Below are positions 759 through 1,776 of a stretch of DNA of 64,000 nt, in pieces; the first letter of the stretch is position 1; the number at the start of each line of letters is the position of its first letter. This DNA comes from a phage. The notes beneath the pieces are model-generated. The model worked only from the letters and a program-made list of their open reading frames with translations, was not told the DNA's origin and searched no databases. The stretch lies in the sequence record PZ452582.1. The stretch is one strand, 5' to 3'. The translations under genes and the position numbers were made by a program.

Positions 759-831
759 TGGGAATTAGCCAAGTTGGTAAGGCATAGCACTTTGACTGCT
801 AGATGCAAAGGTTCGAGTCCTTTATTCCCAG
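759..831 (+). tRNA. tRNA-Gln (anticodon UUG)
   Basis: Cloverleaf: acceptor tgggaat/attccca, anticodon loop cTTTGAc... read as UUG at 792-794, T-loop ttcgagt. Confidence 0.85.
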
Positions 832-832
832 C

Positions 833-919
833 GCGAGAATGGTCAAATTGGTAAAGGCACAGCACTTAAAATGCTGCGGAATGATTTCCTTGTGGGTTCG
901 AGTCCCACTTCTCGCACCA
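833..919 (+). tRNA. tRNA-Leu (anticodon UAA), class II with long variable arm, CCA encoded
   Basis: Acceptor gcgagaa/ttctcgc, anticodon loop cttaaaa, T-loop ttcgagt, 3' CCA. Confidence 0.85.
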
Positions 920-924
920 AATTT

Positions 925-998
925 GCGGATATCGTATAATGGCATTACCTCAGACTTCCAATCTGATGATGTGAGTTCGATTCTCATTATCCGCTCCA
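925..998 (+). tRNA. tRNA-Gly (anticodon UCC)
   Basis: Acceptor gcggata/tatccgc, anticodon stem tcaga/tctga with loop cttccaa, T-loop ttcgatt. Confidence 0.85.
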
Positions 999-1008
999 AT
1001 TTAATTTA

Positions 1009-1082
1009 CTCCGTGTAGCTCAGTTTGGTAGAGCGCCTGATTTGGGATCAGGAGGTCCAAGGTTCAAATCCTTGTATGGAGA
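1009..1082 (+). tRNA. tRNA-Pro (anticodon UGG)
   Basis: Acceptor ctccgtg/tatggag (G-U pairs), anticodon stem cctga/tcagg loop tttggga, T-loop ttcaaat. Confidence 0.8.
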
Positions 1083-1084
1083 CT

Positions 1085-1174
1085 GGAGGCGTGGCAGAGT
1101 GGTTTAATGCACCGGTCTTGAAAACCGGCAGTCGCTCCGGCGACTCATAGGTTCAAATCCTATCGCCTCCGCCA
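1085..1174 (+). tRNA. tRNA-Ser (anticodon UGA), class II
   Basis: Acceptor ggaggcg/cgcctcc, anticodon loop cttgaaa, long variable arm, T-loop ttcaaat, CCA encoded. Confidence 0.85.
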
Positions 1175-1179
1175 GTTTT

Positions 1180-1255
1180 GCTGATTTAGCTCAGTAGGTA
1201 GAGCAACTCACTTGTAATGAGAAGGTCGGCGGTTCGATTCCGTCAATCAGCGCCA
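1180..1255 (+). tRNA. tRNA-Thr (anticodon UGU)
   Basis: Acceptor gctgatt/aatcagc, anticodon stem actca/tgaga loop cttgtaa, T-loop ttcgatt, CCA encoded. Confidence 0.85.
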
Positions 1256-1256
1256 A

Positions 1257-1331
1257 GGCCCTGTAGCTGGAAGGTTCAAGCAAGCGACTCATAATCGCCA
1301 GATGGTGGTTCAATTCCACCCAGGGCCACCA
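1257..1331 (+). tRNA. tRNA with CAU anticodon (Ile2 by T4 analogy, or Met)
   Basis: Acceptor ggccctg/cagggcc, anticodon loop ctcataa, T-loop ttcaatt; T4 has an AUA-reading tRNA-Ile here (from memory). Confidence 0.75.
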
Positions 1332-1340
1332 AATTAATTT

Positions 1341-1427
1341 GGGGAGTTATCCCGTAGAGGTAGCGGTGTGGACTGTAAATTCATTGTCATTGCGACTCGG
1401 GTGGTTCGACTCCATCACTCCCCACCA
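1341..1427 (+). tRNA. tRNA-Tyr (anticodon GUA), class II
   Basis: Anticodon loop ctgtaaa and variable arm gtcattgcgactc closely match recalled E. coli tRNA-Tyr; acceptor ggggagt/actcccc; weak anticodon stem. Confidence 0.65.
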
Positions 1428-1431
1428 ATTT

Positions 1432-1506
1432 GGATGTGTAGCTCAATGGCAGAGCGATCGCCTGTTAAGCGATTGGTTATAGGTTCGAATCCTATCACGT
1501 CCGCCA
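1432..1506 (+). tRNA. tRNA-Asn (anticodon GUU)
   Basis: Acceptor ggatgtg/cacgtcc, anticodon stem atcgc/gcgat loop ctgttaa, T-loop ttcgaat, CCA encoded. Confidence 0.75.
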
Positions 1507-1620
1507 AATTTGTGACAACTGTCACATTAATATCTACTTGACGCGATTATAGGGGTTGAACTGATCACTCTTCTCTTAATTTCGTGTGAAGACATCTTGA
1601 TTGTTGGAGTAGGTATTAAT

Positions 1621-1696
1621 GTGGCCGTAGTTCAGTTGGTAGAACTCGAGATTGTGATTCTCGTAGTCATGGGTTCGACTCCCATCGGTCACCCCA
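1621..1696 (+). tRNA. tRNA-His (anticodon GUG)
   Basis: Acceptor gtggccg/cggtcac, anticodon stem cgaga/tctcg loop ttgtgat, T-loop ttcgact, CCA encoded. Confidence 0.75.
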
Positions 1697-1700
1697 ATTA

Positions 1701-1776
1701 CGGGGCATAGCTCAGAAGGAAGAGCAAGGACCTTCTAAGTCCTAGGTCGTAGGTTCGATCCCTACTGCCTCGACCA
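1701..1776 (+). tRNA. tRNA-Arg (anticodon UCU)
   Basis: Acceptor cggggca/tgcctcg, anticodon stem aggac/gtcct loop cttctaa, T-loop ttcgatc, CCA encoded. Confidence 0.85.

Follow-up and report, generated by a model that had tools for sequence, protein, structure and literature searches.

The 64,000-nucleotide (nt) stretch of phage DNA analyzed here (sequence record PZ452582.1; hereafter the window) carries a cluster of eleven tRNA genes at 759–1776 on the + strand. The locus is very probably the tRNA operon of a Tequatrovirus of the wV7/teqhal type, consisting of the eleven tRNAs, an open reading frame (ORF), the small RNA genes rnaD and rnaC and a terminator, and it is mosaic in build, with an inserted cassette that holds tRNA-His. 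The eleven-tRNA cluster is a known, common variant of T4-like coliphages and as such adds nothing new. What is new is a conserved fold predicted in the unannotated spacer before tRNA-His (1526–1620), joined to a tRNA-His gene that lacks the almost universal encoded G at position −1 (G-1), and this fold may represent a new phage RNA.

The tRNA genes were called with ARAGORN over the whole window, and Rfam 15 covariance models were run on a 4-kb stretch of it. ARAGORN found exactly eleven tRNA genes in the 64 kb, all on the + strand between 759 and 1776. An earlier note, made from the sequence alone, had read the same eleven genes in the same order and had staked its reading on the Tyr, Asn and His calls; ARAGORN returned identical genes and order, those three included. 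The series begins with tRNA-Gln (UUG, 759–832; 66 bits with the Rfam tRNA model and identical to T4 tRNA-Gln at 73 of 73 positions), tRNA-Leu (UAA, 833–919) inside a block of 94.7% identity to T4, tRNA-Gly (UCC, 925–998), also in the T4-matching block, tRNA-Pro (UGG, 1009–1083), which has no encoded CCA, tRNA-Ser (UGA, 1085–1174) and tRNA-Thr (UGU, 1180–1255; 72 of 76 positions identical to T4 tRNA-Thr). A tRNA with anticodon CAU (1257–1331), labeled Met by ARAGORN and assigned to the Ile2 type by sequence comparison, is followed by tRNA-Tyr (GUA, 1341–1427), a class II tRNA with a weak D arm whose call is backed by the annotation of relatives, and by tRNA-Asn (GUU, 1432–1506), which has the top Rfam score of the cluster, 74.1 bits. 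After the gap come tRNA-His (GUG, 1621–1696), with C73, an encoded CCA and a T at −1 (1620), and tRNA-Arg (UCU, 1701–1776), whose sequence is unlike T4 tRNA-Arg and common to T2. The Rfam tRNA model matched ten of the eleven genes with 59–74 bits (gathering score 29), tRNA-Tyr being the weakest of the set; matches to the YrlA, sX4 and Plastid-ycf2 models landed on tRNAs and stayed under their gathering scores.

The gap between tRNA-Asn and tRNA-His (1507–1620) contains the 16-nt hairpin that the earlier note had pointed out (P0, TGTGAC-AACT-GTCACA, 1511–1526, + strand), an inverted repeat that gives a stem of 6 base pairs (bp) and a 4-nt loop as RNA. From 1526 to 1620 the + strand is predicted to form a three-way junction, as judged by a z-score, an RNAalifold consensus and a covariance model. 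Helix P1 pairs 1526–1539 with 1607–1620 and P2 pairs 1541–1546 with 1582–1587; P3 is a hairpin at about 1550–1578, J2/4 reads GAA, and P4 (1591–1594/1602–1605) carries the 7-nt loop UCUUGAU. The fold measures ~95 nt in the window and 91–107 nt across copies, and its minimum free energy (MFE) z-score is −3.1. RNAalifold gave a consensus of 26 pairs for an alignment of 11 sequences (14 bp of P1, with P2, P3 and P4), eight of them changed on both sides. The proportion of paired cells was 96.8%, against 39–51% when partners were slid by 1–3 columns, and the covariation score reached 0.316, compared with at most 0.155 in controls and attained by none of 500 shuffles.

P1 was 14–15 bp long in all 12 examined variants with an intact tRNA-His, and its inner half consisted of several unrelated sequences (ATCTACT/AGTAGGT, TTCATTC/GAGTGAA and GTTCTTTCT/AGAAAGAAT), with yet another (TATCCATC/GATGGATA) in phage W70, where no tRNA-His adjoins the element. 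The P4 stem was found as GACA/TGTT, GGCA/TGCT, GTCC/GGAT and GCCA/TGGT. P3 occurred in two unrelated versions, AGGGGTTGAACTGATCACTCTTCTCT and GGCAGAAGTCATGAACCTGCT (STP4-a (L008), 1204–1303; L015, L022, L146), and in larger forms too; the versions appear with different P1 and P4 backgrounds, as though P3 could be exchanged as a unit. The covariance model scored close copies at 95–117 bits on the + strand and at most 25 bits on the − strand, and it picked up divergent copies in Cronus (66 bits), L142 (44 bits) and L124 (30 bits). Only the + strand tolerates G-U pairs, and this together with the strand asymmetry of the scores favors an RNA on the tRNA strand. As far as sequence comparison can tell, the gap holds a conserved, strand-specific RNA fold and not a promoter.

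No known RNA family accounted for the element. Rfam returned no match for 1507–1620 at E ≤ 1 in the 4-kb search, and the gap searched alone gave best E values of 3.2 and 6.2, far under gathering scores. The covariance model detected neither a second copy of the element nor any likeness to rnaC or rnaD in the window, T4 or T2 loci. A hammerhead ribozyme was rejected, as the junction strands read UG, GAA(G) and G(G) against a core of CUGANGA, GAAA and UH and Rfam gave no hammerhead match in the gap; Y-RNA-like and tRNA-like models also had no Rfam match there. A kissing interaction between the P3 and P4 loops (AUCA:UGAU in version A, UCAUGA:UCAUGA in version B) was considered and set aside as not general, the loops of Cronus and L124 being different.

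The element is present in 356 phage records, 198 of them at least 95% identical, and 11 metagenome contigs and a few IMG/VR contigs supplied further variants. It immediately precedes tRNA-His in five genera of the Tevenvirinae, Tequatrovirus, Karamvirus (EnA02, EnC07), Jiaodavirus (15882-3, PKO111), Roskildevirus (Cronus) and Gelderlandvirus (STP4-a). In STP4-a the element is kept and tRNA-His is truncated to GTGG, in the metagenome contig L020 it is kept with tRNA-His lost or truncated, and in four Vequintavirinae-like phages (W70, A7_1) it stands between tRNA-Gly and tRNA-Gln; because of W70, STP4-a and L020, the fold can be said to persist without tRNA-His. The core pattern was absent from 185,579 bacterial and archaeal genomes, the pattern being strict enough to miss divergent copies. 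A search of the literature for core sequence strings, which did not cover a large compilation of 10,006 viral RNA candidates (PMC10690425), returned no description of the element, only a chance 13-mer in a Salmonella small RNA. In Erwinia phage Cronus (L145, 187–407), ~220 nt more of unannotated sequence lie between tRNA-Gln and the element.

The tRNA-His gene downstream of the fold fits the standard numbering throughout 1621–1696 (G1-C72, U8, A14, G18G19, GUG at 34–36, C73, CCA). It resembles E. coli hisR in its anticodon GUG, C73, CCA and acceptor stem (G1-C72/U2-A71/G3-C70), with 80% identity, and differs in that hisR encodes G-1, whereas the phage gene has T-1, paired into the leader helix; the anticodon and discriminator of a tRNA-His are present, and an encoded G-1 able to pair with C73 is not. 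The base at −1 was T in 12 of the 12 variants examined that have an intact tRNA-His. Passages in PMC4357726, PMC3245924 and PMC4338351 describe G-1 as the major identity element for histidyl-tRNA synthetase, genome-encoded in bacteria, and passages in the first two state that RNase P leaves the hisR-encoded G at −1 in place. Of 56 tRNA-His genes that were called cleanly in viral contigs, 50 had G at −1; the six with T(-1) all lie in phage tRNA clusters, and three of them belong to the family with the gap element. The other three (L048, 1715–1787; L130, 1110–1183; L136, reverse complement, 4864–4938) have no encoded CCA and start 1 nt after the preceding tRNA. A near-identical tRNA-His without encoded CCA (CACC-TAAA) was also seen in Karamvirus EnA02 (L007, 2676–2748). 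A search of the literature for phage tRNA-His and G-1 turned up nothing specific.

The T at −1 is the last P1 base pair in every Tevenvirinae copy, and the closed helix therefore abuts the acceptor stem. Just 5′ of P1 lies GTCACA, the 3′ half of hairpin P0, which four genera (Tequatro-, Karam-, Gelderland- and Roskildevirus) have conserved and whose complement stands at positions −1 to +5 of tRNA-His; with the bases upstream of it, 10–11 of the first 12 nt of tRNA-His can pair. A nearest-neighbor model assigned −63.2 kcal/mol to this extended helix and −57.2 kcal/mol to the combination of hairpin, element and cloverleaf. The extension of the helix into tRNA-His is suggestive only. The 5′ half of the hairpin, UGUGAC, resembles the 5′ end of tRNA-His, UGUGGC, and such mimicry would create a three-way alternative pairing.

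The surroundings of the element are those of a well-populated group of coliphages. A 2-kb query spanning the cluster showed 99.3% identity with Escherichia phage teqhal and 99.1% with wV7 (100% of the query), and at least 80% of it was covered in 266 phage records. In the records of wV7 and slur02 the annotated tRNAs are the identical eleven, arranged alike and with the gap ahead of His. wV7 and its relatives (teqhal, slur02, PhiZZ23, KRT47) share with the window the 114-nt gap, the ORF of 116 amino acids (aa) and the flanking trna.2, trna.3 and trna.4, and wV7 differs by point changes only, its tRNA-His starting with GTGACCG where the window has GTGGCCG; in the inspected records of wV7-type relatives the gap is left unannotated. 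Between 9 and 10 tRNAs are listed for HY01, AR1, pSs-1 and Shfl2, compared with 8 in T4 (PMC5201272). The earlier note was right that the cluster exceeds the eight tRNAs of T4 and that Tyr, Asn and His are the extra ones, the T4 record having eight tRNAs and none of those three; the cluster is not unusual among T4-like phages, its arrangement being annotated identically in wV7 and slur02.

Alignment to T4 shows where the cluster departs from the reference phage. The window matches T4 at 94.7% over 176–1276 and at 98.0% over 2145–2487, with no T4 match across 1277–2144, so that the similarity stops at 1276, right after tRNA-Thr. The two loci agree in position and orientation, in the Gln-to-Thr part (~95%) and in rnaD/rnaC (98%), and the eight T4 anticodons (UUG, UAA, UCC, UGG, UGA, UGU, CAU and UCU) all occur, ordered as in T4 and with spacers 0–10 nt long. 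Synteny is also kept, as the cluster lies on one strand between trna.4/trna.3/trna.2 and the rnaD-rnaC/e.8 side, with phrog_2023 (the trna.2 family) at 374–661. The place of the T4 Ile-segB-Arg segment is taken by the CAU tRNA, Tyr, Asn, the gap, His, another tRNA-Arg(UCU) and the 116-aa ORF. Among its eight tRNAs T4 carries, between Ile and Arg, segB, which encodes a homing endonuclease of the GIY-YIG type; the window has no segB, its Ile2 and Arg sequences are different ones, and Tyr, Asn, the structured RNA, His and the ORF are present in addition. segB, which separates the two sub-clusters of T4 and is a trait of T4 itself rather than of the genus, had neither a T4 match nor an ORF of its size in 1277–2144.

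Phage T2 (PV648363) supplies the closest likeness for this replaced segment. Its CAU-Tyr-Asn-Arg-ORF module is ~93% identical to that of the window, and it differs in lacking the structured RNA and tRNA-His, with only 4 nt between Asn and Arg, and in having a coding sequence (CDS) in place of tRNA-Thr. Because Asn and Arg are only 4 nt apart in T2, the gap and tRNA-His (~190 bp) can be regarded as an inserted cassette. The region 1523–1697 is 88% identical to a Jiaodavirus copy, which lies there between tRNA-Gln and tRNA-Ser. The cluster is a mosaic, on sequence similarity, of T4-like Gln-Leu-Gly-Pro-Ser-Thr and rnaD/rnaC parts (95–98%), a T2-like module and the inserted His cassette, and it illustrates the known mosaic, cassette-wise evolution of phage tRNA clusters. 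Endonuclease genes appear to remodel these clusters: in slur03 (L002, 1173–1781) an HNH endonuclease gene occupies the place of tRNA-Gln, hence its ten tRNAs, and in Klebsiella phage 15882-3 (Jiaodavirus, L005, 1758–2426) a homing-endonuclease gene lies directly upstream of tRNA-Gln, the structured element and tRNA-His. The CDS at the tRNA-Thr site of T2 (L006, 1091–1492) encodes 133 aa, and T2 has nine tRNAs, Tyr and Asn included.

By analogy with T4, phage promoters upstream of the cluster presumably give rise to polycistronic precursors, and tRNAs would be freed from these by host RNase P together with enzymes of 3′-end processing. RNase P cleavage at the 5′ end of tRNA-His, together with 3′ trimming of tRNA-Asn, would then release the element as a discrete, stable small RNA in the manner of rnaC and rnaD; before its release, it may affect how, or whether, the 5′ end of tRNA-His forms. 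Our best guess, guided by these analogies, is that the element is a processing by-product or a leader that is released as a small RNA. T4 rnaC and rnaD are its closest analogues, being structured non-tRNA RNAs of ~120–140 nt in the same unit and on the same strand, and the gap element resembles them in that it is structured, is not a tRNA and lies inside the tRNA unit on the same strand. It differs from rnaC and rnaD in its architecture, shows no sequence or model similarity to them, and stands 5′ of a tRNA and not 3′ of the last one. We consider the chances about even that the fold at 1526–1620 is functional and belongs to an undescribed family of phage RNAs, always located in tRNA clusters and, in Tevenvirinae, accompanied by a G-1-less tRNA-His, acting as an excised small RNA or as a cis leader. 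Several points weigh against this reading. The independent lineages number only ~6–8 and their sequence diversity is limited; covariation is convincing for P1 and P4 only, P2 being invariant in the 11-sequence alignment and P3 unalignable; the element's transcription, its sites of processing and its stability are deduced from sequence; and the element could be a mere structured spacer that assists the folding or processing of its neighbors and has no function of its own. If the fold is functional, it would be a new phage non-coding RNA and would offer a tractable E. coli/T4-type system for the processing and charging of G-1-less tRNA-His where the host histidyl-tRNA synthetase normally requires G-1, in which one could also ask whether leader structure gates tRNA maturation in nature; it would further bear on why phages carry queuosine-family tRNAs.

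Other explanations for the gap fare less well. The earlier note had placed a promoter-like element in it, and a plain spacer with a hairpin and an internal sigma-70-type promoter, from which a His-Arg-ORF-rnaD-rnaC unit would start, has a parallel in T4, which itself has two sub-clusters with segB between them. The hexamer behind this idea exists, as TTGACG at 1539 matches the −35 consensus at five of six positions, but it has no −10 partner: a sigma-70 scan for −35/−10 pairs at a spacing of 16–18 nt found zero + strand sites in 1507–1620, the sites over 1–3000 were at shuffle level (9 against 7.6 ± 2.3), and a motif search of the gap found neither a MotA box nor the late motif TATAAATA. Moreover, TTGACG falls in junction J1/2 and helix P2 and reads TCAACG in Jiaodavirus copies with the pairing kept, so the changes are compensatory for pairing and the hexamer is not conserved. 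The promoter-like element is part of the conserved RNA fold, and an internal promoter is hardly tenable. It is also very improbable that the conserved inverted repeat is an element of DNA, be it an insertion resembling a miniature inverted-repeat transposable element (MITE), the target or scar of a homing endonuclease, or a decayed tRNA gene. The cassette does behave as an insertion relative to T2, and homing-endonuclease genes do occur in such clusters (segB in T4, the HNH gene in slur03, the gene upstream in Jiaodavirus); however, the inner part of the arms varies and the interior core is conserved, the opposite of a MITE with transposase-bound ends, the G-T wobble and the high model scores are confined to the + strand, the element is single-copy at each locus with none elsewhere in the 64 kb, and ARAGORN and Rfam show no tRNA-like gene in the gap. 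A role as a cis leader specific to tRNA-His, which would control 5′-end formation of the G-1-less tRNA, is decidedly unlikely in our judgment. Such a leader could, for example, shift or block RNase P cleavage or present a long duplex to RNase III, with the result that one more 5′ nt stays on the tRNA or maturation is regulated. P1 ends precisely at −1 in every Tevenvirinae copy, T-1 is invariant where hisR and most viral-contig genes have G, GTCACA is conserved in four genera with a helix extendable into the first 5–12 nt of the tRNA, that extension is energetically preferred, and the UGUGAC/UGUGGC mimicry offers an alternative pairing. Yet the copies of the W70 type do not adjoin tRNA-His, and STP4-a and L020 keep the element after loss of that tRNA; the Jiaodavirus-type copies are without GTCACA and can pair at 7–8 of 14 extension positions, chance alone giving ~5; no variation ever occurs on the tRNA side of the extension, which leaves it without covariation; MFE models disregard tRNA tertiary structure; and three other phage lineages also do without G-1 and have no such leader.

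The three added tRNAs raise the separate question of why they are carried at all, and supply of codons explains part of the answer. Codon use, computed on 72 ORFs of the window, was 27.4 per thousand for UUA, 21.4 for CAA, 18.9 for UCA, 16.2 for GGA, 15.0 for ACA, 11.2 for AUA and 8.7 for AGA; the eight T4-type tRNAs serve codons ending in A, of which this AT-rich phage makes heavy use. Tyr makes up 4.5% of residues, Asn 5.9% and His 2.0%, and relative to general background figures for E. coli, Tyr and Asn are used ~1.5 times more and His is not raised. The Tyr and Asn tRNAs fit an added supply for this raised demand, as far as those background figures hold, and tRNA-His does not fit the logic of codon supply. 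It is conceivable, and on balance somewhat unlikely, that Tyr, Asn and His, perhaps with the structured RNA, are counter-defense cargo, standing in for, or acting as decoys of, host tRNAs that anticodon nucleases cleave. All three are GUN-anticodon tRNAs of the queuosine family, and the low share of His points to no extra demand. Genes for these Tyr and Asn tRNAs also occur in T5-like, FelixO1-like and Vequintavirinae phages; they are phage-lineage genes unlike those of the host chromosome; the E. coli chromosomal tRNA-Tyr and tRNA-Asn showed no significant similarity to them, and a recent capture of the two from the host was dismissed as unsupported on that ground. A phage tRNA-Tyr is known to rescue T5 from the PtuAB nuclease of retron-Eco7 and a tRNA-Lys to counter PrrC (PMC11555353), and a role of phage tRNAs in counter-defense has been proposed in general (PMC10264068). 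On the other side, no tRNA-Asp stands alongside the three, the clearly raised demand for Tyr and Asn means that codon or amino-acid supply already covers two of them, and the structured RNA is tied to no nuclease.

Two of the tRNA calls deserve comment. tRNA-Tyr was represented, among the Rfam matches listed, only by a tRNA-Sec match of 29.9 bits; its D arm is poor, and its MFE fold shows the acceptor and T arms only. The gene nevertheless has a 7-bp acceptor stem, G1-C72, A73, a loop that reads CU-GUA-AA and a variable arm as long as is typical of bacterial tRNA-Tyr, it is annotated as tRNA-Tyr in wV7, slur02, T2 and others, and a copy on an E. coli plasmid, 84% identical, carries the same annotation in RefSeq. 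The tRNA-Tyr call, made by ARAGORN, is still supported by these sequence features and annotations despite the weak Rfam score and fold. The CAU tRNA matched the CAU-anticodon tRNA-Ile of E. coli in 5,412 of 5,426 genomes at 76–82% identity over at least 80% of its length, and 12 of 12 among the matches listed were annotated tRNA-Ile. It also matched ileZ of Stx phages and the tRNA-Ile of 44RR, has the 5′ strand of the acceptor stem and the anticodon loop in common with T4 tRNA-Ile, and groups with tRNAs of the ileX/ileY/ileZ type and not with tRNA-Met or the initiator. By these similarities it is of the Ile2 type, predicted to carry lysidine and to read AUA, and not a tRNA-Met. The CAU and Tyr tRNAs (1257–1431) are 96% identical to those of the ~138-kb phages phiWec193, CM1 and phiWec191, a degree of identity that far exceeds the cross-family expectation and suggests recent exchange of a tRNA cassette.

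A candidate T4 middle promoter with a MotA box was found by motif search at 662–697 on the + strand (ATATGCTTTA, with TATTAT ~12 nt on), right after the stop codon of the trna.2 homologue and ~65 nt upstream of tRNA-Gln. Downstream of tRNA-Arg, the 116-aa ORF (1795–2145, + strand; phrog_3355, RB69ORF150c-like according to an annotation note in wV7) is absent from T4 at this site; it has no Pfam match, and phrog_3355 carries no functional label. It is followed on the same strand by homologues of T4 rnaD (species 2; 2145–2259, with 115 identical positions against T4 rnaD 4–119) and rnaC (species 1; 2266–2404, 137 of 139 positions identical). A hairpin with a T run resembling an intrinsic terminator (2455–2478, + strand) is the probable end of the tRNA/small-RNA unit, and a late-promoter motif, TATAAATA, is seen just past it at 2485–2492. 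Farther on, an Rfam Hammerhead_II match at 3695–3751 (21.6 bits, gathering score 37, E = 0.47) is most likely due to chance. An in-frame TGA at 2704–2706, where wV7 and slur02 have GGA, cuts the phrog_2280 homologue into two ORFs (2533–2706 and 2719–3006), which makes it either a nonsense mutation of this genome or a sequencing variant.

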